From contig JAZLAV010000018.1 in the NCBI GenBank assembly GCA_045613315.1, positions 33,975 to 97,974 on the forward strand: 64,000 bases of DNA, read 5' to 3'. Below, piece by piece: positions 2,117 to 50,186 of the stretch. A program made the translations under genes and the position numbers. The stretch's first letter is position 1. Each line of letters starts with the position of its first letter. Origin of the DNA: Candidatus Enterousia sp. Lineage in GTDB: Bacteria > Pseudomonadota > Alphaproteobacteria > Rs-D84. The notes beneath the pieces are model-generated. The model saw nothing but the letters and a program-made list of their open reading frames with translations. It was not told the DNA's origin and did not search any database.

Positions 2117-2647
2117 ATGAAAAAATTTTTAAAATATTTACTGATAATTCTGGCGATAATTTTGCTGGACCAAATATCCAAAGATATACTGATTGCGTTA
2201 ATAACAGGGCATGTGCCGTTGGTGGCGCCTGCGTGGGAACTGATACCGGTGCCGTATTTAATGGCGCATGTAAACGATTTGTTTAATGTTGTGTTTACGT
2301 GGAATCCGGGGACATCGTTTTCAATGTTCCGTGTTTTGGGGGAAACAGCACCGTTTGTAATAATTGTTGCAACCGCATTTGTGATTGGGTTTATATTATA
2401 CTATCTTTTTGTGCGGGCAATGAATTATGAACGGTTGTCGTTGGCCTTTATTGCGGGTGGGGCGTTGGGAAATTTAATAGACCGTGTGCGTTTTGGGGCG
2501 GTAATCGATTTTCTGGATTTTCATATTGGTGGGGCGCATTGGCCGGCATTTAATGTGGCGGATGCATTTATATGTATTGGGGTTGGGTTGTATATTTTAA
2601 ATTGGTTCATTGCGCGTCGTCGTTGTATTCGTGCAAACAAACAATAG
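2117..2647 (+). CDS. lspA: lipoprotein signal peptidase II
   Basis: 176 aa, four TM segments, with the SPase II motifs NPGTSFSMF and FNVADAFICIGVGLYI. Confidence 0.85.
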   Translation: MKKFLKYLLIILAIILLDQISKDILIALITGHVPLVAPAWELIPVPYLMAHVNDLFNVVFTWNPGTSFSMFRVLGETAPFVIIVATAFVIGFILYYLFVRAMNYERLSLAFIAGGALGNLIDRVRFGAVIDFLDFHIGGAHWPAFNVADAFICIGVGLYILNWFIARRRCIRANKQ

Positions 2648-2655
2648 GATGAAAA

Positions 2656-4212
2656 ATGGTTCAATATCTGGATAATAATAATTCTGGTTTTGCGATGTGG
2701 AACGCAAATAAATCGGCAACGCGCAAACGCAGTGGTTTGGGAATTTTGTGGTGGTTTCTTATATTTATGGTGTCGTGGTGGGCATTTGGTACAATTTTTG
2801 GCGATAAACCCAAGACGGATGTTTTGTCCGAAACGGACGTTATTGAACAAGATGTGTCGGCGGTACCCTTAAATAAAATCGCGTCTGATAAAATAAATGC
2901 CGATGTTCGCGGGCTGCGCGTGTCGAACATTGAATTGAACGAATTCCCAGATGGTGCGGAAAATGTAAAATTATTATCTGGGGAAAAAGATTTTATTGAA
3001 ATCGGTTTGAATGCAAACGGAACAATTGCGCCGGTTGCAGATACGGTGTGGAACAATGTGGGCGACAAATACACATGGCGTAATTCAGATGGTGTTGAAT
3101 TTAACCGCGTCGTTTCGGTTTCTGATTATGTAATAACAATCAACGATGAAATAAAAAATAATTCTGATCGTGATTTTTCTTTTTCGCCGTATGTGCGTAT
3201 TCGTCGAAATAATGATCATGTGACGTCTGCGGGTGTTTATACGGGGGCGGTTGCGTTGGTAAATGGCGATGTTGAACACAATGATTGGCGCGCAATCGCC
3301 AAAAAACCACGTGCATATACCACAACAAATGGATTTGCGGGATTTGCAGACCAGTATTGGGAAACGGTTGTTAAAATTGATACGCCGGATCAAACAATTC
3401 GTGCCCAGAAAAACGGCGATACATATGGTATTGAAACAACTGCGCGCCCGGTTATGGTTTCTGCGGGTGATGCCAAAAATGTAATAACACATATTTTTGC
3501 AGGGCCCCGTGACGGTCGCATTTTGCGCGATGTGGAACGGAATATTTCCGGTATCGAAAAAACGGTTGATTATGGGTGGTTCTGGTTCTTGGCAATGCCG
3601 ATGTTGTGGTTAATTAACACGATAAATGCGTTTGTTATGAATTATGGAATTGCCATTATTATTATGACGATTTTGCTGCGTTTGGCGATGTGGCCATTGA
3701 CGCGCAAATCATACACATCCATGGCGGCGATGCAGAAAATGCAGCCCGAAATGCAACGGATTCAGAAACTTTACGCAAATGACAAACAGCGTATGCAGTT
3801 GGAAATGATGAAACTGTATCAGACGCATAAAACATCGCCGATGTCGGGTTGTTTGCCGATGTTGATTCAGATTCCAATTTTCTTTGCGTTATATAAAGCG
3901 TTGCTGATTTCGGTGCAAATGCGTAATGCACATTTTCTGTGGATATCTGATTTGGCGGTGATGGATCCGTATTTCATTTTGCCGATACTGATGGGGCTGT
4001 CAATGTGGTTGCAACAGCGTTTGCAGTCGGGTGCAACCAAATCGTCCGATAAAAACGATGTTGCGGCACAAACACAACGTGCGATGCGTTGGATGCCGAT
4101 TATATTTACAGTAATGTTTGCGTGGATGCCGGCCGGGTTGGTGTTGTATTGGACTGTATCAAATCTGTTCGGAATCGTGCAGATGTATATAATAAAACGT
4201 AAAATGAAATAA
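2656..4212 (+). CDS. yidC: membrane protein insertase YidC
   Basis: 518 aa. The C-terminal 60-kDa IMP region MWPLTRKSYTSMAAMQKMQPEMQRIQKLY...MSGCLPMLIQIPIFFALYKAL is a clear YidC/Oxa1 core. Confidence 0.85.
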   Translation: MVQYLDNNNSGFAMWNANKSATRKRSGLGILWWFLIFMVSWWAFGTIFGDKPKTDVLSETDVIEQDVSAVPLNKIASDKINADVRGLRVSNIELNEFPDGAENVKLLSGEKDFIEIGLNANGTIAPVADTVWNNVGDKYTWRNSDGVEFNRVVSVSDYVITINDEIKNNSDRDFSFSPYVRIRRNNDHVTSAGVYTGAVALVNGDVEHNDWRAIAKKPRAYTTTNGFAGFADQYWETVVKIDTPDQTIRAQKNGDTYGIETTARPVMVSAGDAKNVITHIFAGPRDGRILRDVERNISGIEKTVDYGWFWFLAMPMLWLINTINAFVMNYGIAIIIMTILLRLAMWPLTRKSYTSMAAMQKMQPEMQRIQKLYANDKQRMQLEMMKLYQTHKTSPMSGCLPMLIQIPIFFALYKALLISVQMRNAHFLWISDLAVMDPYFILPILMGLSMWLQQRLQSGATKSSDKNDVAAQTQRAMRWMPIIFTVMFAWMPAGLVLYWTVSNLFGIVQMYIIKRKMK

Positions 4213-4243: not shown

Positions 4244-4577
4244 GTACCAGGTATCGATACAGTGCATATGGCGTCTGGATTGTGCGTGCGGTGACACCAA
4301 TTGCGCGTTTCGATAAATCGACACATGAATATGCGTGTGTTTGGGTAAATTCATGCGGGGCGTCAATCGGAACATATACAAATTGCCATCCGTGCATGCG
4401 CAAAATACGAATGTCGCGTGTGGTAAAATATATCTTTTCAATTTTGCCAGGCCGTACAAATTGATACATGACAAGTTTTTTGCCAAATTGAAATATCGGT
4501 GCACAATGCCGAAATTTTCGACACAGTAAACGTGGCAATACCTTGGACGTGTTATGTGAAAATGCGATGATAATCAT
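4239..4577 (-). CDS. hypothetical protein (112 aa), downstream of virB10
   Basis: Intact ORF with a GGGGG RBS 6-8 nt upstream of the ATG. No recognisable domain. Confidence 0.4.
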   Translation of the reverse strand: MIIIAFSHNTSKVLPRLLCRKFRHCAPIFQFGKKLVMYQFVRPGKIEKIYFTTRDIRILRMHGWQFVYVPIDAPHEFTQTHAYSCVDLSKRAIGVTARTIQTPYALYRYLVQ

Positions 4578-4596
4578 AATTATTCCCCCGGGTTGT

Positions 4597-4941
4597 TTAT
4601 TTGTTTATCCAACCGCGGATGATGGCGGCGTGCTCGATTGTTTCCATGGCATCGTGCCACAATGCCGCGGCACGATTTTCCGCCCAGATATATTGGTGCG
4701 GGGCACGACGACGATCGCCATATTTTTTCATGACCCCCAATTGTTCGTCGGTTAATTTCCCGCACAGATACAATTTTGTCACCAATGATTCAACATCCAT
4801 CAATTCGCACACGCGACGGGTCGGATTGCCATGTTGGCGTGTAAAACCATTTTGAACCGATTTGGAATACAAGAACCAAAACCATAATTGTTCGGCGCTT
4901 TGGAATTTTTCTGGTGTATATGCGATTTGTGTTTTTGTCAT
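4597..4941 (-). CDS. hypothetical protein (114 aa)
   Basis: Intact ORF with a GGGAG RBS upstream. No domain recognised. Confidence 0.4.
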   Translation of the reverse strand: MTKTQIAYTPEKFQSAEQLWFWFLYSKSVQNGFTRQHGNPTRRVCELMDVESLVTKLYLCGKLTDEQLGVMKKYGDRRRAPHQYIWAENRAAALWHDAMETIEHAAIIRGWINK

Positions 4942-5178
4942 TTGTTTTTCTCCCTTGGTAAATTAAATTTAATGTATTTATAGACACGAATTAGAACGAT
5001 ATTAAATATTACAACCGCCGGTTGAAGTGCGAATCGGTTTTCCGATTCGTGTATAGAATTTGGTTTTGTGTAATCGAATCGGCCGTTGCGGTTTGTTTTT
5101 AATAAAAACCGCGCATTTAATGCGCGGTTTTATTGCATATGGTACATTATGAAGAGTTCATTGTGCCCCCCCGTGGAT

Positions 5179-5212
5179 AAAAAATAACCCGCATCGTGCG
5201 GGTTATTTTTAT
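5179..5212 (-). terminator. terminator hairpin downstream of virB10
   Basis: aaaaaataacccgcatcgtgcgggttattttt: an inverted repeat flanked by A/T runs. On the minus strand it follows the virB10 stop at 5232. A second hairpin sits at 5104-5134 (aaaaaccgcgcatttaatgcgcggtttt). Confidence 0.6.
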
Positions 5213-5231
5213 GGTTAACTTATCTTTACCA

Positions 5232-7580
5232 TCACAAAATCGGTGGAAAACAATCGCCACCCGTTTGTGGACAGCAATTGAATCCTTGGTCACCCATATC
5301 GGTATAAATTTCGCCGGTACAGCAACCGTTTGCATCCGGTGCCAATCCGTCTTCACAGGTTATAATGTTTTCCGTCGGTGCCGTTTCAACGGGCAACTTT
5401 TCTGATTGGTACGGATTCTTTATCGAACCATCGTCATTATATTTCAATCCCAAAACCTGTTCGTTATAGGTTTTTGTATCGGTGGCTTTACTGGCGATAC
5501 TGTTGTTGTTGCTTGTGGATTGTTGATTTTGATAAACTGCTTCCTGGCGAGCATTATTTATTGCCTGGTAATTACTGGCCTGGCAATATGCAACCAGTGT
5601 ACTGTACGAATACCCCAATTTATTTAACGCATCCGCGATGACGGCATTATAATCCATTGCACGCAACGCACCGGTTTTGGAATCTGTAATACAATATTGC
5701 GACAGGTTAAACGAACGTGCCTGGCCAACCCACGAACCGTCGTCATAATCGGCCTTGGCGTCCCAATGGGGAACCGAACGAACAACGGTTGCCCTGTTCG
5801 CTGCGCCGTTCATATAGCATTTTTTACTGCCGTCTGTACAAGCAACCATCAAATCATACGGTGAATAAACTGTAATGCGTGTACCGGCCGGAATTGTGAA
5901 CGGTGGAACGGTATTGTCCATCATATCAACCAATAACTTTTGTGCCACCTGGTTCCAGGCGGTAATAATTTCATTTTTCGCCAGTTCAGATGAACGCATT
6001 GTTCCGCTTTGCACAACCGTGTTGTTGTCCAAATCAATTTGATTAACAAATTTATCGGCAACGGGTGCAATCATATTTACCGCCGCCGGTACAATGGCGG
6101 TTAACATCGGCATAACAAATTGTTCCAAGTAATCGGTACTGCCGCGACCGGGCACACCAACACGTCCCTGGGCATCGGCCGATGTTGGTTCGGTACCATT
6201 TTGGAAATTAAATTCAACGCCGTTTGGTAAAACAAATTGATACCATTTTATATTCATACGACCAATTGCCTTGTACGGGCCCGGAACATTTCCGGTGACA
6301 TAGCCCAACATAAGTGTTCCCGTGGGAATAATGATTGTTCGACCGTTATCTGAATATACGTTTCTATCAACTGTGGCACGCACAGGGAAATGCAGATTAT
6401 CGGCTTCCAGTGCAGCATCCGCCCGAACGTCGGAAACAATCGTTGCGGGAATCGGTTTGTATTGGCGCAATATAAATGTTCGGTCGTATGGTTGGGTTGC
6501 AACAATGGCATTTTGGTCCGTGGTGCCATAGGACACATCTGTATCCGGTTGCTTCGTTACCAGTTTTTTCATGCCCCCAGTCGGCGCGTCGGCAACAACG
6601 GCATCGGTTGCGCGCACGGATGTTTTACGTGCCCATGGCGCGTCATTCAATGTTGGCATATTGCCAGACGATACAACATTTCCAATATGTTCGGCATCGG
6701 TACCGATGCGTTTGCCATCACCGTTAATGTCGGTGATAATACCGCTGTCCGGGTTGTAAACACCGGTGGCGTTTTTGCATTCTGTATCTGAAAAAGGATG
6801 AAAATAGTATGCACCGTGTTCCGGTTTTATCCAACCAATTTGATTGCCCGATGCATCATATCCCGGGAACGCAAAATCAGAACAAGATTCCGACGCACGT
6901 GCGACCGGTTTTGGTTCTTCAATCGGTGTCGAAATTTCCTTTTTCCCGGCGAACGGGTCGGCGGGCGCAATCGTTTTTATTTCCGATTCAATTTCGTTGA
7001 CCGCGGGTTTCACAACGGGTTCCGGTTCCACGATTGGTTTTGCAACCGGTTTCGGTGTTTCTTTGATTTCAGGTGCGGTGGCGCCCAAAATAACAGTTAT
7101 TTTTTCCGCTGTTTTCATCGTGTCGGGTTCCGATGCCGCGCGCCAATCAACATACATTGTCACCGTTTCCGGTTTCATTGCGATATTTGGTGCGTATTCC
7201 AAAATCACACGGCACGGAATCGCAGCGGTTATTTCGCCGGCATCCGTACAGGTCGTTTTTACATTAAATCCATCGATTTCCTTGTTCCGGCGAACGGTTG
7301 CACGGGCGGGCGCATTGGTTTTTACGGTAATTGTTTCGGTTTTTTTTGTACCAACCATAACATTTGCCCAATCAACAGTGTCATTGGACAACGTGACCTT
7401 GACCTGGACATCATTTACCTTTTGAGTGTTTTTTTTCGCCCTGCCGCCGCCAATTAACAATGTTAACAGTATAACAACAACCAAAAATGCCGCCCCCAAC
7501 AGCAACCATTGAACGTATTTTGGTGTTGTATTGCGCAAATCTGAAAATTGCTGGCCAAGTTTATTCATGTTAATTCGCAC
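5232..7580 (-). CDS. virB10: type IV secretion system protein VirB10/TrbI family, with about 200-aa Cys-rich C-terminal extension
   Basis: N-terminal TM (WLLLGAAFLVVVILLTLLIGG), a Pro-rich linker (KETPKPVAKPIVEPEPVVKPAVNE), and the VirB10 C-terminal barrel region (NGRTIIIPTGTLMLGYVTG...ADAQGRVGVPGRGSTDYLEQF...FTIPAGTRITVYSPYDL). Possible starts are GTG at 7580 or ATG at 7568. Confidence 0.75.
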   Translation of the reverse strand: MRINMNKLGQQFSDLRNTTPKYVQWLLLGAAFLVVVILLTLLIGGGRAKKNTQKVNDVQVKVTLSNDTVDWANVMVGTKKTETITVKTNAPARATVRRNKEIDGFNVKTTCTDAGEITAAIPCRVILEYAPNIAMKPETVTMYVDWRAASEPDTMKTAEKITVILGATAPEIKETPKPVAKPIVEPEPVVKPAVNEIESEIKTIAPADPFAGKKEISTPIEEPKPVARASESCSDFAFPGYDASGNQIGWIKPEHGAYYFHPFSDTECKNATGVYNPDSGIITDINGDGKRIGTDAEHIGNVVSSGNMPTLNDAPWARKTSVRATDAVVADAPTGGMKKLVTKQPDTDVSYGTTDQNAIVATQPYDRTFILRQYKPIPATIVSDVRADAALEADNLHFPVRATVDRNVYSDNGRTIIIPTGTLMLGYVTGNVPGPYKAIGRMNIKWYQFVLPNGVEFNFQNGTEPTSADAQGRVGVPGRGSTDYLEQFVMPMLTAIVPAAVNMIAPVADKFVNQIDLDNNTVVQSGTMRSSELAKNEIITAWNQVAQKLLVDMMDNTVPPFTIPAGTRITVYSPYDLMVACTDGSKKCYMNGAANRATVVRSVPHWDAKADYDDGSWVGQARSFNLSQYCITDSKTGALRAMDYNAVIADALNKLGYSYSTLVAYCQASNYQAINNARQEAVYQNQQSTSNNNSIASKATDTKTYNEQVLGLKYNDDGSIKNPYQSEKLPVETAPTENIITCEDGLAPDANGCCTGEIYTDMGDQGFNCCPQTGGDCFPPIL

Positions 7581-9974: not shown

Positions 9975-10066
9975 ATTTCCACTTGATTTTTTATAATGAC
10001 GTGGTATCTTAGCGCAGACTATTGGGGTATTGCGGCATAAATCGGGCGATATTGTATGGTTATCAC

Positions 10067-10140
10067 AGGGGCATAGTTCAACGGTAGAATATCGGTCTCC
10101 AAAACCGCGGATGAGGGTTCGATTCCTTCTGCCCCTGCCA
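10067..10140 (+). tRNA. trnW: tRNA-Trp (anticodon CCA)
   Basis: Cloverleaf by eye: acceptor AGGGGCA/TGCCCCT, anticodon loop CTCCAAA, T-loop GTTCGATTC, encoded CCA end. It lies in the canonical position before secE-nusG. Confidence 0.85.
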
Positions 10141-10191
10141 GAAATCTGGCGCAAAAACAATGGTCGCAAAAGAAAAAATTGGATGATTTTT

Positions 10192-43037: not shown

Positions 43038-43973
43038 TTATTTTCTAATTTTGTCGTAGTTTTTGCGAATGATATTGCCACTGTGACGCAGTGCGGCGGA
43101 TTCGGGCGCGGCCAATTTCGGCATAAGTGTTTTTGTCACCCCCATTACGCCCACCACACCTGGTAACGACATGGCGACGCGTTTTGCGCCGATGCCTGAA
43201 ACGGTGCTGACCGTCAAGATTCTGTTTTCGTCGTTTGCAATACAGCGAATCAAATCTGCAACCGCCCCAGCAATACCGTCCCATGTTGCGCCACGTCCGC
43301 GAATAATTTCATATGCGGCCGTGTGGACACGATGTTCGATTGTTGCGCGTGCATTGTTTGTCAATGGTGTTTTTGTCTGTTTGCAAAAATCGTTTAATTC
43401 AATTGCACCGATTGTTGCCGGTGTCCATGCAACAACAGAACTGTCGCCGTGTTCACCCAAAACATATGCATTTACCGATTGTGGTGATACCGCCAGTGCG
43501 CGCGACAATATCACACGCAGACGTGCCGAATCCAGCATTGTCCCCGTTCCAATCACGCGGGCAGGGGGCAATTTAGACAATTTTTGTGCCAACATAACCA
43601 TTACATCCAACGGGTTTGTGACGACGACCAATTTTACATTTTTGTTGTCCACATTTGCCATCACGCGTGGCACGATGTCGGAAATAACATCGGCGTTTTT
43701 CTGTAATAAATCCATACGTGTTTCGCCGGGTTTCTGATTTGCACCAGCGGCAATAATCACGATTTCAGAACCGCGTATTGCGCGATAGTTGTTTGCTGCG
43801 GTAATTTTAACATCGAATGAAAATGCGGCGGCGTGCCCCAAATCTTCGGCGGCGGCGCGTGCACGGACGGCATCGCGGTCATATAAAACTATTTCGTGTG
43901 CCAGACCCGTATTTTTAACCGCGGTGGCGACGGCCGATCCGACCGACCCAATACCAATAATTGCTATTTTCAT
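43038..43973 (-). CDS. ldh: L-lactate dehydrogenase (LDH/MDH superfamily; Gln at the substrate-specificity position)
   Basis: MKIAIIGIGSVGSA (Rossmann), AGANQKPGETRMDLL (Gln rather than Arg, favouring lactate), VIGTGTMLDSARLR, GEHGDS. The start was set at MKIAIIG, with coordinate uncertainty of plus or minus 1. Confidence 0.7.
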   Translation of the reverse strand: MKIAIIGIGSVGSAVATAVKNTGLAHEIVLYDRDAVRARAAAEDLGHAAAFSFDVKITAANNYRAIRGSEIVIIAAGANQKPGETRMDLLQKNADVISDIVPRVMANVDNKNVKLVVVTNPLDVMVMLAQKLSKLPPARVIGTGTMLDSARLRVILSRALAVSPQSVNAYVLGEHGDSSVVAWTPATIGAIELNDFCKQTKTPLTNNARATIEHRVHTAAYEIIRGRGATWDGIAGAVADLIRCIANDENRILTVSTVSGIGAKRVAMSLPGVVGVMGVTKTLMPKLAAPESAALRHSGNIIRKNYDKIRK

Positions 43974-44104
43974 TTTTAATTTCCCCCTGTTAAATAACAT
44001 TATATCACAAACGCAAAAAAAAGTTCGCATAATTTGTAAAAAGCACTTGCGACGAATAAAATATATTTTCTATAATCCAATTACAAAGCAAAGGAGAAAC
44101 ACAC

Positions 44105-44584
44105 ATGAAAACATTATCAACACTTTTTGCGGCATGCGGGATTGCATTTGCGGGTGCTGCGTCGGCTGCGAACATCACAATTTATTATTCCCCGACATGT
44201 CCACATTGTCATCACGCGCGTGAATTTATTTCCAGCACACTGATTTATGAATATCCAAATTTGACGGTCAGTGAAGTTAACGTTTTCGATGAATCGAACA
44301 ACAAAATGTTTTCGGATGCGTTAAAGAAATGTGAATATGAATCTGGTGGCGTGCCGGTGTTGGTTGTCGGCGAAAAATGTTTCCAGGGCTATGCCGATTT
44401 TATGCAGGGCGAATTACGCGAAGCGGTCGAGGCTGACTTAAGCGATGCAGATAAAGCAACCGCCGCCGAAAACAAAAAGGCATTAGAAGAAAACGCAGAA
44501 AAATTTAAATCAGAACACGCAGACAGGGCAAATGCCATTTCTGAATACAAGTCAGCATCAGACGATGCGGCAAAAAAAAAATAA
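44105..44584 (+). CDS. periplasmic thioredoxin-fold protein with CPHC active site (DsbA/glutaredoxin-like)
   Basis: Signal peptide MKTLSTLFAACGIAFAGAASA, then ...YYSPTCPHCHHAREF..., then an acidic low-complexity tail. The gene ends in GCA AAA AAA AAA TAA (an A10 tract). Confidence 0.6.
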   Translation: MKTLSTLFAACGIAFAGAASAANITIYYSPTCPHCHHAREFISSTLIYEYPNLTVSEVNVFDESNNKMFSDALKKCEYESGGVPVLVVGEKCFQGYADFMQGELREAVEADLSDADKATAAENKKALEENAEKFKSEHADRANAISEYKSASDDAAKKK

Positions 44585-44693: not shown

Positions 44694-45467
44694 ATGTTTG
44701 ATTTAACGACACTGGATTATATATACATCATCGTGGTTTTGGTTTCGACCATTTGGGCGACAATGCGCGGTGGTGTATATGAAACCATTGCAACATTGTC
44801 ATGGGTGATTGCGGCGGTGACTGCACGGTTTGCGTCGCCCATTTTGGACGGTTGGTTACAGGATTGGTTCAAATTGTCTGAATCAACGGTTGGGACATTG
44901 GTTGCGTCGTATTTTGTTGTATTTTTTGTGATATTGATAACTGTCGGGTTCTTTAACCAAAAATTGCGCGACAAAATCCAGGACAGCATTATGAACCTTA
45001 CCGATAAAACACTGGGGGTGATTTTTGGTATTGTTCGTGGTGTTGTTGTAATGGGGGTCGTGTATTGGGGTGCGTTGTGGTATTATTCCGATGCACCACG
45101 TTTGCCGCGGTGGTTGGATATGTCGCGTATGCGTCCCGTTATGCACACGACGGCGGAATTGTTGGACAAATGGTTTATCCCGGGGACCGAAAACAGGTTG
45201 TTGGCACGCGATCGTGTCGGAATGGAAGAAAAGATGAAGATTTATAATAATCTTATCAACCCGGCCGTATCTGACCGTCCCGCAAACACCGCGTCGGGCG
45301 AACGTTCGGGTGCGGACGCACCAAAGAAGCCGGCCGAAGAACCGGCGGAAACTGGATATAAAACATCGGAACGCACTGCATTGGAAAATCAGTTAATGCA
45401 AATTGAATCCGCAGCCAAGGCGGCAGAGGCACGCGAGTCCGCCAATCAGGGCGACCAAAACGATTAG
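44694..45467 (+). CDS. cvpA: CvpA-family membrane protein (colicin V production protein homologue)
   Basis: DYIYIIVVLVSTIWATMRGGVYETIATLSWVIAAVTARFASP... matches the CvpA N-terminus; 4 TMs; and a C-terminal low-complexity extension. Confidence 0.7.
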   Translation: MFDLTTLDYIYIIVVLVSTIWATMRGGVYETIATLSWVIAAVTARFASPILDGWLQDWFKLSESTVGTLVASYFVVFFVILITVGFFNQKLRDKIQDSIMNLTDKTLGVIFGIVRGVVVMGVVYWGALWYYSDAPRLPRWLDMSRMRPVMHTTAELLDKWFIPGTENRLLARDRVGMEEKMKIYNNLINPAVSDRPANTASGERSGADAPKKPAEEPAETGYKTSERTALENQLMQIESAAKAAEARESANQGDQND

Positions 45468-45649
45468 TCGTTGGTTGCAAAGATAAATAAAAACCACCGT
45501 CCGTATGGGCGGTGATTTTTGTTGGGTATTGCGGAATGTGTATTATGATAAAAATATGCAAAACAATCGTTAGAAAAATTTTTGTAAAAAATCACGCAAG
45601 TGGGGCACAATCATTGCCGAGTTTTTGATGTGGTTTTTAATATTCAACA

Positions 45650-46290
45650 AATTATTTGACGGCGACAATCACAAACGCGGGTAATCCCCATCCAAAATTT
45701 TGTATTTCCCGCCCGCGGCGGAGTGTCACGAAGTGACGGGGTGGGTATTCGGTGTCGTTTGTTCCGATGAACGGTTGGAACCCTCCCCGCCCTGCGAGCC
45801 ATCCCCTCCGATGGAGGGGAATTATTCTCTGGGCCCAGTTTCCAGAAAAACGCAATGCGTTTCCCAGGCCCCCGTTTCATTTTGTCATTGCGAGCAAAGG
45901 GTACCCACAAAATGCAACGCATTTTGCGGGGGCCGCCGGCGAAGCAATCCAGTCAATAGTGTATGGGCGTTCCGCTCACGGCTTTATTACACCCTGGATT
46001 GCCGCGGTCGCTACGCTCCCTCGCAATGACAAAGCCGCCACCCACCCACCAAACAAAATTATTCCCTTTTGGGTTTTCTGTGTTATAATGAGTATTGAAT
46101 CCAATGGGAATTGGGTTCGGGCTGTGGTAAGCCTACAAAAATCCGGTGCAAAAGCATCGTAATCTGATGTTTTTCGGTGCCTTTTGCACCGTTATACATC
46201 CCCGATTGTTTGGTCGGGGAACAGACTTGATTTTTGGTCTTTACCACTCCCCGACCGCTTTTCCTTTGGCGGTCTTTTTCTTTATAACCA
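45650..46290. repeat. GC-rich, palindrome-dense non-coding island
   Basis: About 640 bp that is markedly GC-richer than its flanks, with no coherent ORF. There are at least 10 short perfect or near-perfect hairpins: gtcacgaagtgac, cccctccgatggagggg, aaaacgcaatgcgtttt, cgccggcg, ggtgcaaaag..cttttgcacc, ccccgattgtttggtcgggg, gaccgcttttcctttggcggtc. Also a distant inverted pair tgtcattgcgag (about 45888) and ctcgcaatgaca (about 46021). Confidence 0.55.
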
Positions 46291-46301
46291 ATGGAACAAA
46301 C

Positions 46302-47348
46302 ATGGCAAATGTACATTTTGATAACGCAAAACGTAATAAAAACGATGAGTTTTATACTTGTTATGAGGATATCGAAAAAGAATTAAATCACTATGCCAAG
46401 TATTTCAAGAACAAGGTGATTTATTGCAATTGCGATGACCACGCGGGAATTGGGCTGGGAACACCAAAATCAAACTTCCTTAAATACTTTGCCGATAATT
46501 TTGAGGCATTTGGCATTAAAAAAGTAATCGCCACCCATTATGAACGCGATGGCGCATCCACAATGTATGTGTTGGACCACGATAACACCGGCGATGGTAT
46601 TATTTGCAGCGAGGATATAGAAGAAATACCATTAAAGAGTAATGGCGATTTTCGTTCGCCCGAGTGTATTGAATTGTTAAAAACCGCGGACATCGTAATT
46701 ACAAACCCGCCATTTTCGTTGTTTGGTGAGTATGTTGCGCAACTAATGGAATATAAAAAGAAATTCATAATTATTGGTAATGATAATTGCCGAACCTATA
46801 AAGATATATTCCAATTGATAAAAGGTAACAGATTCTGGAGTGGATATAATCATGTAAAAAAATTTGTAAAACCAGATGGGGAAATACAGCAGTTCGGTAA
46901 TGTTTCTTGGTACACAAATATACCAACAATACGACGTAATGAAAAGATAGAAACCGGTAAAAAATATTACGGATACGAAAGCATGTATTCCCAATACGAA
47001 AATTACGATGCAATAAATGTCAATAAGACGGACGATATCCCAATGGACTATGACGGCGTAATGGGCGTACCTATTACTTTTATTGATAGGTACAATCCAG
47101 AACAATTTGAAATTGTTGCCTTGGGTATAGTTGGTAGTTGTAATTTTACTAGTAATAAAAAAATGGAAATTTTGGACAAACAAGGCAACAGGACGGGTAA
47201 ATTTACATTTAATGCAAAGGGAACGTTGTACAGGAAATACAACCCAAACAATCCGAAAGATAACCCCGCCTTTGTAGATGTTGAAACAGGACAATTGTAT
47301 TCCAGCATTTATGCGCGAATTTTAATCAAAAAGAAAAAGGGGAACTAA
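46302..47348 (+). CDS. N6-adenine DNA methyltransferase, EcoRI-methylase-like family
   Basis: MANVHFDNAKRNKNDEFYTCYEDIEKELNHYAKYFKNKVIYCNCDD... and motif IV NPPF (ITNPPFSLF). The ORF-track ATG at 46146 lies inside the GC-rich island; the start was reset to the ATG at 46302. Confidence 0.7.
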   Translation: MANVHFDNAKRNKNDEFYTCYEDIEKELNHYAKYFKNKVIYCNCDDHAGIGLGTPKSNFLKYFADNFEAFGIKKVIATHYERDGASTMYVLDHDNTGDGIICSEDIEEIPLKSNGDFRSPECIELLKTADIVITNPPFSLFGEYVAQLMEYKKKFIIIGNDNCRTYKDIFQLIKGNRFWSGYNHVKKFVKPDGEIQQFGNVSWYTNIPTIRRNEKIETGKKYYGYESMYSQYENYDAINVNKTDDIPMDYDGVMGVPITFIDRYNPEQFEIVALGIVGSCNFTSNKKMEILDKQGNRTGKFTFNAKGTLYRKYNPNNPKDNPAFVDVETGQLYSSIYARILIKKKKGN

Positions 47349-47349
47349 T

Positions 47350-48549
47350 ATGGTGATGAAGGCAAAGTTGTTTGATACATTAACCGTTCGGCAATTGGTC
47401 GATGGTTACCGCGATTCCGGCGACAACGGTGTTGTTGCGTTTGGTGGAAAACTTAATGTGCGACCCGCATTCCAACGCGAATTTATTTATACGCCACGTG
47501 ATAGAGACATGGTTATGAAATCGGTTTATGATAATTTACCGTTAAATGTTATGTATTGGGCACGCAACCCCGATGGCACATTTGAAATTATTGATGGACA
47601 ACAGCGCACAATTTCCATATGCCAATTTATCACGAACGATGATGGTTATGGCAATCCAATCGCAATTAACTTTGATGGTCGCCGAACGCAAACATTTAAT
47701 CAAATGTCACCGGAAAAACAGCGCGAAATATTGGACGAATATAAATTAATGGTCTATGTTTGCGATGGCACCGAAGACGAAAAATTGGAATGGTTCCATA
47801 CCATAAACATTGCCGGCAAAGTGATGGAGGAACAAGAATTACTAAATGCCGACTATACGGGAACATGGCTGACATCGGCCAAGGCGTTCTTTTCCAAAAA
47901 AGACAACAATCCCGCATTGAATTATCGGTATTATGACAACGACCGAAAACACAGTTTAATTGCACTTAACGCCGATGATGCCAATCGCCAGGCGTTACTG
48001 CATTTGGTGTTGGGGTGGATTGTGGACGGCAACCCCAAATTATATCCGGAAATAAAAAACTATATGTCGATTCACCGCGCAGACGAAAATGCAGATGAAT
48101 TGATAAATTACTATAAATCGGTTGTTGATTGGGTGCACGATGTGTTCGGTGAAAAATACTATAACGAAATGCGCGGGTTGCCGTGGGGATTAATCTTTAA
48201 TAAATATCGATATGGTAAATATGACCAATCGGTTATGGCACGCGCGGTCTCGGGACTGATGGCAGACGAAGAAATACAAAACAAACGTGGCATTTTCGAG
48301 TTTCTGTTTGATATGAACCAAAAACACCTGAACCTGCGGCAATTTGATAACGCAACCAAACGCACAATTTATCAAAAGCAGGCCGGCATTTGTCCGTACT
48401 GTGCCAACACGGAAAACGCAAACAAAGTGTGGAAATTCGAGGAAATGGAGGGCGACCATATTATGCCGTGGTCCCAGGGTGGCAAAACCATTCCAGAAAA
48501 TTGCCAAATGTTATGCAAACATCATAACAGGGCAAAAAGCGACAATTAA
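47350..48549 (+). CDS. DUF262 (ParB-like, DGQQR) domain fused to C-terminal HNH endonuclease
   Basis: EIIDGQQRTISICQF is the DUF262/GmrS-type motif. The C-terminal CPYCANTEN...EGDHIMPWSQGGKTIPENCQMLCKHHNRAKSDN is a classic HNH. The ATG is 2 nt after the MTase stop, so the two are translationally coupled. Confidence 0.7.
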   Translation: MVMKAKLFDTLTVRQLVDGYRDSGDNGVVAFGGKLNVRPAFQREFIYTPRDRDMVMKSVYDNLPLNVMYWARNPDGTFEIIDGQQRTISICQFITNDDGYGNPIAINFDGRRTQTFNQMSPEKQREILDEYKLMVYVCDGTEDEKLEWFHTINIAGKVMEEQELLNADYTGTWLTSAKAFFSKKDNNPALNYRYYDNDRKHSLIALNADDANRQALLHLVLGWIVDGNPKLYPEIKNYMSIHRADENADELINYYKSVVDWVHDVFGEKYYNEMRGLPWGLIFNKYRYGKYDQSVMARAVSGLMADEEIQNKRGIFEFLFDMNQKHLNLRQFDNATKRTIYQKQAGICPYCANTENANKVWKFEEMEGDHIMPWSQGGKTIPENCQMLCKHHNRAKSDN

Positions 48550-48580: not shown

Positions 48581-48583
48581 CCT

Positions 48584-48658
48584 GGTGCCAGTTGTCGGAC
48601 TTGAACCAACGACCCTCTGATTACAAATCAGATGCTCTACCAGCTGAGCTAAACTGGC
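48584..48658 (-). tRNA. tRNA-Thr (anticodon UGU)
   Basis: The reverse complement is GCCAGTTTAGCTCAGCTGGTAGAGCATCTGATTTGTAATCAGAGGGTCGTTGGTTCAAGTCCGACAACTGGCACCA. The anticodon loop TTTGTAA gives UGU, and CCA is encoded. Confidence 0.8.
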
Positions 48659-48759: not shown

Positions 48760-50001
48760 ATGAAAAAATTACCTGAATTATTGGCGCCGGGGGGAACACT
48801 GGACGCGTTTAAAACCGCAATTTTATACGGTGCAGATGCAATTTATGCCGGTCTGCCGGGGTTTTCAATGCGCGCACGGGCGAAAATCACCACCGATGAA
48901 GTGAAAACTGGTATCGATTTGGCCCACGCGGCGGGGAAACGCGTGTATTTGGCATTTAACCTTTTTGCGCACGATGCGGAATACGCCAATATGCCACGGG
49001 TTGGTGAAACGATACGCTATTTAAAACCCGATGCGTTGATTGTGGCGGATCCGGGGGTGTTGACCTGGGTGCGGGAAAATTTCCCCGATATGCCGATTCA
49101 TATTTCAACCCAGGCGAACATCTGTTCCGCCCAATCGGTCAAATTTTGGCAACGTGCGGGGGCGTCGTTGTGCGTGTTGGCGCGCGAAGTGTCGCACAAC
49201 GATTTCAAAACTATTCGTGCCGCGTGCCCGGATGTAAAACTGGAAATATTTGTTCACGGGGCAATGTGTATGGCTTATTCTGGGCGGTGTTTGCTGTCAA
49301 ACTTTATAACGGGTCGGCCGTCAAATCGTGGGGCGTGTGCGCAGTTGTGTCGGTGGAAATATGATGTGATTTTGCGCGAAACGGAAACCGGTATCGAAAT
49401 GCCAATCGAAGAAGACGACCGGGGCGTATATATTTTGAATAGTAAAGATTTATGCCTTATGCCACGATTGGCGGATGTGTTGGAATCCCACCCGGATTCA
49501 TTAAAGATAGAGGGGCGCAATCGTTCCGAATACTATGTTGCATCGGTCGTGCACGCGTATCGTGCGGCGATGGATGCATGGGCGGCGAATCCCGAACACT
49601 TTGGTTCCGCGCCGTTTATGGACGATTTGAATAAATTAGAAACGCGTGGTTATACAACGGCGTTCTTTGATGGGCCTGTAACGCCGGATGCGCATAATTA
49701 TGAATCTGCGCGGTCGGTGTCTGATTTTCATGCGGCGGGCGTTGTCGTGGCGCGGGACGCGGAAAAAATTACATTTGAATTGCGTAATGAAACACGCATC
49801 GGTGATGAAATAACGTTTTTGATTCCGGGCGGGGCGGAAAAGGCAACTGTGAAATTGCCGGAAATCATAAATGCAAAAAACGGCGAACGCCAACCCAAAA
49901 TGTCTGCAGGCCAGGGGAACAGCATTTTAATCCCACGCACGTGGGTCGCGACGAATTACGATAAATTGGTGCCGTTGACGGTGGCATATAAACGGAAATA
50001 G
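48760..50001 (+). CDS. peptidase U32 family protein (YegQ/TrhP-like)
   Basis: …HISTQANICS…VLAREVS…EIFVHGAMCMAYSGRCLLS…GACAQLCRW… matches the conserved U32 core. Confidence 0.75.
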   Translation: MKKLPELLAPGGTLDAFKTAILYGADAIYAGLPGFSMRARAKITTDEVKTGIDLAHAAGKRVYLAFNLFAHDAEYANMPRVGETIRYLKPDALIVADPGVLTWVRENFPDMPIHISTQANICSAQSVKFWQRAGASLCVLAREVSHNDFKTIRAACPDVKLEIFVHGAMCMAYSGRCLLSNFITGRPSNRGACAQLCRWKYDVILRETETGIEMPIEEDDRGVYILNSKDLCLMPRLADVLESHPDSLKIEGRNRSEYYVASVVHAYRAAMDAWAANPEHFGSAPFMDDLNKLETRGYTTAFFDGPVTPDAHNYESARSVSDFHAAGVVVARDAEKITFELRNETRIGDEITFLIPGGAEKATVKLPEIINAKNGERQPKMSAGQGNSILIPRTWVATNYDKLVPLTVAYKRK

Positions 50002-50002
50002 G

Positions 50003-50135
50003 TTGCAGGTTCGTCATTCCCGCGCAGGCGGGAATCCAATGCCACGCAGTGATTATATTATGTTCGTTGCCGTGGGCAACAGATTGCCTGCGGCGCAGTA
50101 GATCCCGGCCTTCGCCGGGATGACGGCTTTCTGGA
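50003..50135. repeat. MITE-like palindromic element with imperfect ~24-nt terminal inverted repeats
   Basis: gtcattcccgcgcaggcgggaatc ... (internal hairpin gttgccgtgggcaac) ... gatcccggccttcgccgggatgac. Each end is itself an ATTCCC-N8-GGGAAT-type palindrome. It starts with ggttgcaggtt, which is also found after rpoC. Confidence 0.5.
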
Positions 50136-50159
50136 ATTTGGTTATAAATAAAAAACCGC

Positions 50160-50186
50160 CTAAATGGCGGTTTTGCTAATCACCAA
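50160..50186 (+). terminator. rho-independent terminator after U32 gene
   Basis: aaaaaccgcctaaatggcggttttgc. Confidence 0.65.

Follow-up and report, generated by a model that had tools for sequence, protein, structure and literature searches.

The stretch of DNA analysed here (64,000 nt, hereafter the window) carries, in this order, ldh (43038-44030, minus strand), a glutaredoxin-like gene (44105-44584), cvpA (44694-45467, with a Pfam Colicin_V match), an EcoRI-family N6-adenine methyltransferase (46302-47348, plus strand; Pfam PF13651, E = 9e-101; PADLOC MTase_II), a nuclease combining GmrSD_N (DUF262) and HNH domains (47350-48549, plus strand; Pfam, and a full-length match to PADLOC REase_II, E = 9e-98), a tRNA-Thr (48583-48658, minus strand) and a U32 peptidase (48760-50001). 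The intrinsic terminator of cvpA, located by terminator scan at 45495-45514 (plus strand), marks the left edge of a non-coding gap of ~790 bp (45515-46301), which begins with an AT-rich spacer (45515-45659, GC 0.29) and extends to the methyltransferase. The hairpin-dense island studied here (45650-46290) lies within this gap. PADLOC assigns both genes behind it to Type II systems, as methyltransferase and restriction enzyme respectively, and the nuclease gene adjoins the methyltransferase in every homologous cassette examined. The methyltransferase is the first gene of the operon, and the DUF262-HNH nuclease is presumably the restriction enzyme of the pair. Both genes are AT-rich (GC 0.36 and 0.42), and no C-protein gene is present with the pair. 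The first-pass annotation of this DNA had placed the start codon of the methyltransferase inside the island, but GTG 46146 is a mechanical open-frame start; the true start is ATG 46302, the resulting 348-aa product being 100% identical to database protein P0121, with the Pfam model aligning from residue 6.

Horse, ruminant and other gut samples supplied the nearest relatives, which carry the labels "MAG: Alphaproteobacteria bacterium" and Candidatus Enterousia. In Rs-D84, the uncultured order that includes Enterousia, most genomes are smaller than 1 Mb, as are the published Candidatus Enterousia genomes (<~1 Mb; PMC12306168). Relatives whose CvpA is 80-84% identical to that of the window have another gene (347-350 aa) in the cvpA/tRNA-Thr slot. 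DNA similarity to one of them (L001) ends at 45443 and restarts at 48545, and the whole segment in between is, by this comparison, specific to the present genome.

The island had been described as a GC-rich, hairpin-dense block without any plausible ORF. It is indeed non-coding, hairpin-dense and higher in G+C than its flanks, but the GC-richness belongs to its first two thirds only (45660-46060, GC 0.56, the 99.4th percentile of 401-nt windows, for a whole-window mean of 0.434), while 46093-46279 has a GC of just 0.46. Folding as RNA, one of the checks proposed by the first-pass annotation, gave the 651-nt stretch far greater stability than shuffled sequences of equal dinucleotide content, on either strand (z = -7.4 and -6.0). 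It has eight perfect stems of 7 bp or more, against a mean of 2.8 (sd 2.1) in windows of the same size, 3.3% of which reach eight. Every palindrome listed in the annotation is present, with one base of one of them miswritten: gtcacgaagtgac at 45725-45737, tcccctccgatggagggga at 45802-45820, aaacgcaatgcgttt at 45848-45862 (where the last base is c and not the t given), ccccga/tcgggg at 46200-46219 and gaccgc/gcggtc at 46253-46274. The stem given as 10 bp is one base pair longer (11 bp, 46144-46154 with 46181-46191), and the distant inverted pair given as 12 nt is perfect over 14 nt (45881-45894 with 46020-46033). Regarding coding potential, none of the three ORFs of the region matches Pfam, and the two longest frames have no homologs (136 aa, among 5.8 billion proteins; 109 aa, among 1.84 billion proteins), while tblastn of the relatives' slot gene (347-350 aa) against the region returned nothing significant (E >= 0.5). 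A pseudogene with recognisable protein homology, the outcome that the annotation had named as contradicting its own view, was thus not encountered in the frames searched. The other hairpin-dense stretch of the window (~4500-5600) turned out to be ordinary coding DNA with terminators.

The island is two different things adjoining each other rather than one object. Among the three origins that had been suggested for it, a pile-up of palindromic mini-elements fits 45706-46033, although the nesting of one element within another is unsupported, whereas a structured non-coding RNA fits 46093-46279, where homologs are conserved and covary, but not the remainder. The third, in which decayed GC-rich DNA of foreign origin would have introduced the defence genes, finds no support: protein homology is lacking in the searches above, the mobile cassette begins only at ~46075-46083, and the copies of this cassette in four other genomes lack the first part (see below).

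Palindromic repeat modules of part A

Part A (~45706-46033, GC 0.56) is made of three modules, in the order E1, E3, E2. E1 (45706-45824, plus strand) is a GC-rich (0.63) composite palindromic module, delimited by the same order of hairpins and runs in other loci. It opens with a hairpin CCGCC-CGC-GGCGG (45709-45721) followed by AGT, continues with a second hairpin GTCAC-GAA-GTGAC (45725-45737), a G-run (45738-45745), a spacer and a C-run (45781-45792), and closes with a last hairpin TCCCCTCC-GAT-GGAGGGGA (45802-45820, CCCCTCC-loop-GGAGGGG), then AAYT. The whole series recurs in loci L100 (640-765) and L123 (1247-1345), where it sits between the terminator of a leader of the kind described below and the ribosome-binding site, as well as in a Clostridia MAG (L053, 1497-1625), while L105 has half a copy (1074-1135). 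E3 (45829-45876, no strand assigned; CTGGGCCCAG; AAACGCAATGCGTTT) is a short GC-rich palindromic piece read from the sequence and similar to the inner hairpin in E2's left arm; no homologs of it were retrieved.

E2 (45881-46033, no strand assigned) is a 153-nt MITE-like palindromic element recovered by an inverted-repeat search, with perfect 14-nt terminal inverted repeats (TTTGTCATTGCGAG / CTCGCAATGACAAA) that stand 125 nt apart, and with inner arms GCAATCCAG / CTGGATTGC. Its relatives include an element in L103 (4690-4866), which matches the left 55 nt and the right end of E2, and another in L111 (1400-1520; TTGTCAT...ATGACAA), which lies just upstream of the leader promoter of that locus and reaches Rfam WsnRNA46 (RF02625) on both strands, yet below the threshold (45 bits vs. 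65.3). Further E2-like elements occur in L138 and L082, the latter being a Brevefilum MAG in which a generic E2-type unit forms arrays, and the right arm of E2 is ~92% identical to six places in a Helicobacter canis prophage. Moreover, a close relative carries a solo arm after its U32 peptidase gene, and at the orthologous place the window has a complete 114-nt element of the same class but of a sister type (50012-50125, no strand assigned), bounded by GTCAT...ATGAC and built of 38-nt arms with one 8-bp hairpin each. This element is what the search for dispersed palindrome copies, likewise proposed by the first-pass annotation, yielded in the 64 kb of the window, without a second copy of E1 or of E2 proper.

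No target-site duplication was seen by reading at the ends of E2 (45881/46033), the exact position of these ends being uncertain, nor was any transposase seen in association with part A, and the E2-arm pattern had no match among viral contigs. A nested insertion in the long left arm of E2 was dropped, because its relative in L103 has an equally long arm. Still, E2 is a short non-coding unit with terminal inverted repeats, E1 a composite palindrome, and related copies of both are found at non-orthologous sites in other genomes. Intergenic DNA close to terminators and promoters is where REP/MITE-like modules build up. E1, E3 and E2 would be non-autonomous repeats of this REP/MITE-like sort, probably with no specific role for the neighbouring genes. 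We conclude that part A is neither a gene remnant nor a piece of the restriction-modification cassette, but ordinary, routine genome litter, of interest only as a practical warning, since automatic gene prediction sets spurious ORFs and start codons in sequence of this sort.

The leader RNA and its family

Part B (46081-46279, plus strand) starts with a TG-extended -10 box, TGtTATAAT (46081-46089), with a -10-like hexamer that recurs in the core members of the family described below, and continues with a structured leader RNA of 187 nt (46093-46279), scoring 153.7 bits with our covariance model R1. The RNA comprises helix P1 (46097-46105 with 46110-46118), helix P2 (46119-46122 with 46131-46134), a pseudoknot between the loop of P2 (46124-46130) and 46241-46247, the long-range helix P3 (46136-46143 with 46229-46236), the P4 region (46144-46191), which can be drawn as two short hairpins or one long hairpin (covariation does not discriminate between them), helix P5 (46200-46205 with 46214-46219) and an intrinsic terminator identified by terminator scan (46253-46258 with 46269-46274, then a T-run to 46279). 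The terminator ends 22 nt before ATG 46302, which gives the RNA a 5' untranslated position on the same strand as the operon. Three of its segments are mutually complementary and change in concert across the family: X (CCCCGA, 46200-46205), Y (GGTCGGGGA, 46212-46220) and Z (TCCCCGACC, 46248-46256). X and Y form P5, while Y and Z can form an alternative antiterminator helix (46212-46220 with 46248-46256) that overlaps the first four bases of the terminator stem, so that, computationally, terminator and antiterminator are mutually exclusive. An 8-codon ORF in the P1-P2 region of the window is absent from most copies of the family, in which there is no conserved leader peptide.

This RNA has no counterpart in Rfam 15. 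The gathering-threshold scan, also proposed as a check by the first-pass annotation, had no match in the region and recovered only four tRNAs from the whole window; at E <= 10, the best match within 45400-46400 reached 20.9 bits for a threshold of 55 and lay outside the leader; finally, the leaders of 14 other leader-bearing loci matched none of the 4227 families. The identity of the leader with a T-box or another known riboswitch was rejected on these results, and no published description was found in the literature on its conserved sequence words, on Enterousia or on Rs-D84. Within the window, the covariance search with default filters returned one true copy, a weak match at 4970-5134 (15-17 bits) being regarded as due to chance.

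Homologs were collected by scanning metagenomes for the pattern TTGGGTTCGGG, a gap of 20-45 nt, GCATCGTAATC, these two words having been invariant in the first four copies; their invariance in the collected copies is therefore imposed by the pattern itself. The scan returned 43 loci, among which 41 are true copies, none of them followed by the methyltransferase (0/41). In a MAFFT alignment of 40 non-identical copies, on which the structure was drawn by hand and model R1 was built, 94.6% of the cells are paired, versus 30-47% after a shift of the partners by 1-3 columns, and compensatory changes affect 27 of the 55 pairs, with all four Watson-Crick pair types represented in P3 and likewise in the pseudoknot. 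The structured domain is thus conserved, and its covariation stands far above the shifted controls. Searches with the model added diverged copies, bringing the family to at least 46 members (alignment A5); as this second alignment was fitted to the model, its figures (97.2% of cells paired, compensatory changes in 41 of 51 pairs) lean towards the model by construction. The Y:Z helix is paired at 94.8% across the family, and two of its positions outside P5 show compensatory changes, an argument for selection acting on Y:Z in its own right. Covariation also ties the 5' GGGG run to the 3' arm of P2 and to the CCCC of Z, which hints at a further layer of alternatives.

G-U cells greatly outnumber A-C cells across the family (266 vs. 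9), which shows that the structure is read on the plus strand of each locus, in keeping with RNA. A -10-like hexamer stands a few nucleotides before GAAU or the first helix in each of the 40 core members, usually in the form TAnAAT and often with TG ahead of it. The leaders are tightly coupled to the genes behind them: in 32 of 43 copies, 12-37 nt separate the T-run from an ATG, the strand being the same in every case, and GC-rich palindromic modules are present in most of the longer spacings. Among the diverged leaders, three precede methyltransferases that are ~50% identical to that of the window (L050, L017, L052) and one lies upstream of a PLD-family nuclease gene (L007), while two further sites were found in L011 (2493-2728) and L105 (6528-6740). 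The L011 site is 262 nt from the next gene, hisS, which has a -10 box of its own; such a copy would suit a free-standing small RNA. In L120, two leader halves are joined at the palindromic P4 region, possibly through an assembly chimera. Regarding copy number, L011 and L105 have two leaders each and the window one, and two contigs of ~0.9 Mb gave one match each to the strict pattern. Neither two leader patterns searched against viral contigs nor a scan of a plasmid collection returned any match, and the family was found only in uncultured gut and rumen Alphaproteobacteria, including Candidatus Enterousia. Altogether, part B is a well-supported structured RNA with a clear promoter, a pseudoknotted core and a terminator/antiterminator platform, and the family to which it belongs appears to be undescribed and unnamed.

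Downstream genes and the mobile cassette

The genes that follow the leaders encode outer-membrane beta-barrels, List_Bact_rpt (Listeria-Bacteroides-repeat) surface proteins, lipoproteins, a secreted trypsin-like protease, an acyltransferase with an Acetyltransf_5 domain (GNAT), a GmrSD_N (DUF262) protein, an XRE-type regulator (HTH_3), a PLD nuclease (PLDc_2) and the restriction-modification pair. They are functionally mixed, but mostly related to the envelope or to defence, and such a mixture is unusual for a metabolite riboswitch.

The restriction-modification pair itself is found, together with a leader, in at least five unrelated genomic contexts. In L011, the methyltransferase (69% identical to that of the window) lies between rnhA and an FtsJ-family gene. 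Upstream of it, similarity to the window covers the segment from the -10 box to the ATG and goes no further left, as is also the case in L016 and L018. The cassette of L007 (methyltransferase 71% identical) has a different upstream region, and the DNA on either side of the cassette is unrelated among the window, L011, L016, L018 and L050. Since the upstream homology stops at the -10 box and the flanks are unrelated, the mobile unit consists of the leader, the methyltransferase and the nuclease (~46075-48549), which leaves part A (45660-46060) outside the cassette. Accordingly, the copies of the cassette in four other genomes have the leader but lack part A.

The leader of the window is 87-89% identical to those of outer-membrane-protein-like genes in L101 and L107, and only ~56-58% identical to those of the orthologous methyltransferase cassettes. 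The similarity with L101 and L107 is confined to 46083-46291 (~205 nt), so that promoter and leader together behave as a discrete unit of this length. Its sequence does not follow the downstream gene, the closest leaders preceding unrelated genes.

Proposed attenuation, its alternatives and known systems

According to our preferred reading, the island juxtaposes REP/MITE-like repeats (part A) and an unrelated promoter-leader acting in cis as a riboswitch-like transcription attenuator (part B), an interpretation that we regard as probable. Transcription would start a few bases after the extended -10 box and produce the ~187-nt multi-helix pseudoknotted RNA. With X:Y (P5) formed, Z would remain free and its 3' part would build the terminator, leading to a stop; with Y:Z formed instead, four base pairs of the terminator would be taken and the RNA polymerase would read into the operon. 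An effector (metabolite, protein or other signal) recognised by the conserved core may choose between the two states, and the attenuator would then serve several envelope and defence genes of the lineage in common. When the copy of the window is folded, the terminator state reaches -82.0 kcal/mol and the Y:Z-forced state -68.9 (~13 kcal/mol apart). The terminator state being the more stable, termination would be the default, and the polymerase would get past it only with the help of an effector or factor, or within a kinetic window in the course of transcription. That the leader actually switches, what would trigger it and in which direction it would act are points that we infer from sequence and predicted folding.

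The leader might alternatively be a free-standing small RNA, or a portable strong promoter with a stabilising 5' leader, in which case nothing would switch and read-through would be partial and constitutive. Its own promoter with an efficient-looking terminator, the strong thermodynamic preference for the terminator state and the orphan-like copy 262 nt from hisS would suit such a role, and near-identical leaders before unrelated genes call to mind the reuse of promoters (PMC3575422). Against this stand the recurrent placement of an ATG 12-37 nt behind the T-run, on the same strand in 32 of the 43 copies, and a core conserved far beyond the need of a stabilising hairpin; moreover, the Y:Z helix, which shares bases with the terminator and is maintained through compensatory changes outside P5, would be needless without switching. 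We consider this explanation unlikely. A role of the hairpins as DNA, such as recombination sites through which an integron-like or cassette system exchanges the downstream genes, would account for the joint movement of leader, methyltransferase and nuclease, for a window leader closer to those of L101 and L107 than to those of the orthologous cassettes, and for the two leader halves joined at the palindromic P4 region in L120. It is nevertheless very improbable, as the excess of G-U over A-C fits a single-stranded molecule of the plus strand, most simply RNA, the promoter and the T-run are conserved, no recombinase is consistently nearby and the L120 junction may be an assembly chimera.

The two remaining alternatives bear on the island as a whole. 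For a decayed gene or a foreign GC-rich remnant that arrived with the restriction-modification genes, one can invoke the variability of the cvpA/tRNA-Thr slot, which holds a gene of 347-350 aa in relatives, and the GC content of part A, atypical for the genome; but the long frames are devoid of protein homology, tblastn finds no similarity to the slot gene of the relatives, elsewhere the cassette starts at the leader promoter without part A, and the restriction-modification genes are themselves AT-rich (GC 0.36 and 0.42), which makes this origin highly doubtful. That the whole 640 bp would form one large structured non-coding RNA is scarcely credible: the stretch does fold much better than its shuffles, with long-range pairings predicted across it, but the z-scores are alike on both strands, as expected for DNA palindromes, a promoter separates part A from part B, the leader homologs share only 46083-46291, and part A is missing from all other leader copies.

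Part B could matter more than part A. In a host lineage that is uncultured, the leader RNA connects genes on which susceptibility to phages depends, those of surface proteins, with others directed against phage DNA, namely the restriction-modification genes and the DUF262 and PLD nucleases. Small genomes of the Enterousia type (<~1 Mb) are assumed to encode few protein regulators. A leader that responds to a ligand or to a protein would represent a new class of RNA regulator, and its control of a restriction-modification operon, if true, would be, to our knowledge, a route hitherto unreported. A bolder version, which we put forward only tentatively and to which we give somewhat less than even chances, is that the RNA at 46093-46279 is the founding example of an undescribed class of riboswitch or factor-dependent attenuator. 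In gut Alphaproteobacteria with reduced genomes (relatives of Candidatus Enterousia, order Rs-D84), it would serve, under the command of one signal, as a common switch for envelope proteins (porin-like outer-membrane proteins, surface repeat proteins, lipoproteins) and anti-phage genes (a Type II restriction-modification pair, DUF262 nucleases, a PLD nuclease).

Palindromic intergenic repeats such as REP/REPIN, the Rickettsia palindromic elements, the Neisseria Correia elements and Wolbachia WsnRNA46 (RF02625) are the comparison set for part A. Like them, part A consists of short, GC-rich units that end in inverted repeats and contain hairpins, lies between genes beside terminators and promoters, recurs across genomes and gives rise to spurious ORFs; unlike them, it has no Rfam match, only the L111 relative reaching WsnRNA46 below threshold, and no target-site duplication or associated transposase was seen. 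As for part B, reused promoters (PMC3575422) also exist as near-identical units before non-homologous genes (here 87-89% over ~205 nt). The present unit differs in being mostly a long structured RNA under covariation constraint, beyond the promoter boxes, and no transposition machinery or terminal repeats were seen with it.

Known controls of Type II restriction-modification systems include C-protein operators, EcoRI-type antisense RNAs and autoregulating methyltransferases. The leader resembles them in its place just upstream of a methyltransferase-nuclease operon, with whose cassette it travels, but it is a ~187-nt structured leader with a terminator, neither a protein operator nor an antisense transcript, it also precedes genes unrelated to restriction-modification, and the pair comes without a C-protein gene; we know of no restriction-modification system controlled by such a structured leader. 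Finally, c-di-GMP-I (GEMM) riboswitches precede varied surface and virulence genes. Although the present leader matches none of the 4227 families of Rfam 15 even at E = 10, its downstream genes share no common metabolic theme and its terminator state is strongly favoured, it has in common with riboswitch and attenuator leaders (c-di-GMP-I GEMM, T-box) its own promoter, a conserved multi-helix core with a pseudoknot, covariation, and a platform of mutually exclusive antiterminator and terminator directly upstream of several different ORFs.

The slot between cvpA and tRNA-Thr

In the window, the interval separating cvpA from tRNA-Thr (45444-48545) is a variable hot spot, as its comparison with the loci L001 (10751-12054), L138 and L140 from other genomes indicates. 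The relatives carry there an HNH-like gene of 347-350 aa, which matches neither Pfam nor PADLOC profiles and is accompanied in L140 by a small GIY-YIG ORF, while in the window genome its place is taken by the restriction-modification cassette.

Diverged and rearranged copies of the leader RNA

The structured leader found upstream of the methyltransferase gene also occurs in other settings. In the mobile island of L007, the methyltransferase-nuclease pair adjoins a resolvase and is devoid of leader, a diverged copy lying instead ahead of a PLDc_2 nuclease gene (9995-10159, minus strand). In L011, a diverged copy endowed with its own -10 box (2493-2728, minus strand) lies about 3 kb from the methyltransferase-linked leader, on the opposite strand, and its three mutually complementary segments X, Y and Z are all altered in step (CTCCTGA, GTCAGGAGG and CCTCCTGACC, respectively). 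Because hisS is 262 nt away and has its own promoter, this copy may be an orphan leader or a free-standing RNA. Regarding L120 (7210-7510), two leader 5' halves are joined head to head, with the junction at the palindromic P4 region and an alanyl-tRNA synthetase gene downstream; this configuration stems either from recombination of the DNA at the palindromic site or from chimeric assembly of the metagenome. Finally, the covariance model of the leader yields a weak second match in the window (4970-5134; 15-17 bits), within an AT-rich intergenic region containing two terminators. Since no co-oriented gene follows it, this match is probably due to chance.

Palindromic elements in the window and in other genomes

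Between the stop codon of the U32 peptidase gene and a terminator (50152-50174), the window harbours a palindromic element of 114 nt (50012-50125; ends GTCATTCCCGCGCAGGCGGGAATCC and CCGGGATGAC), with arms of 38 nt that each contain an 8-bp hairpin. It belongs to the class of E2, the MITE-like element at 45881-46033. Elsewhere, the generic unit gtcattgcga...gaagcaatc is a repeat type crossing phyla, for which no literature was found: in a MAG of Brevefilum (Anaerolineae), it recurs every ~170-190 nt in a tandem-like array (L082, 6370-6930), and six units, some of them within annotated hypothetical ORFs, are present in a Helicobacter canis prophage (BK070054.1, 1500-2340). In L111, a TTGTCAT...ATGACAA palindromic element (1387-1529) lies directly upstream of a leader promoter and, while not reaching the gathering score (65.3), resembles the Rfam family WsnRNA46 (Wolbachia sRNA 46) on both strands (45 and 37 bits).
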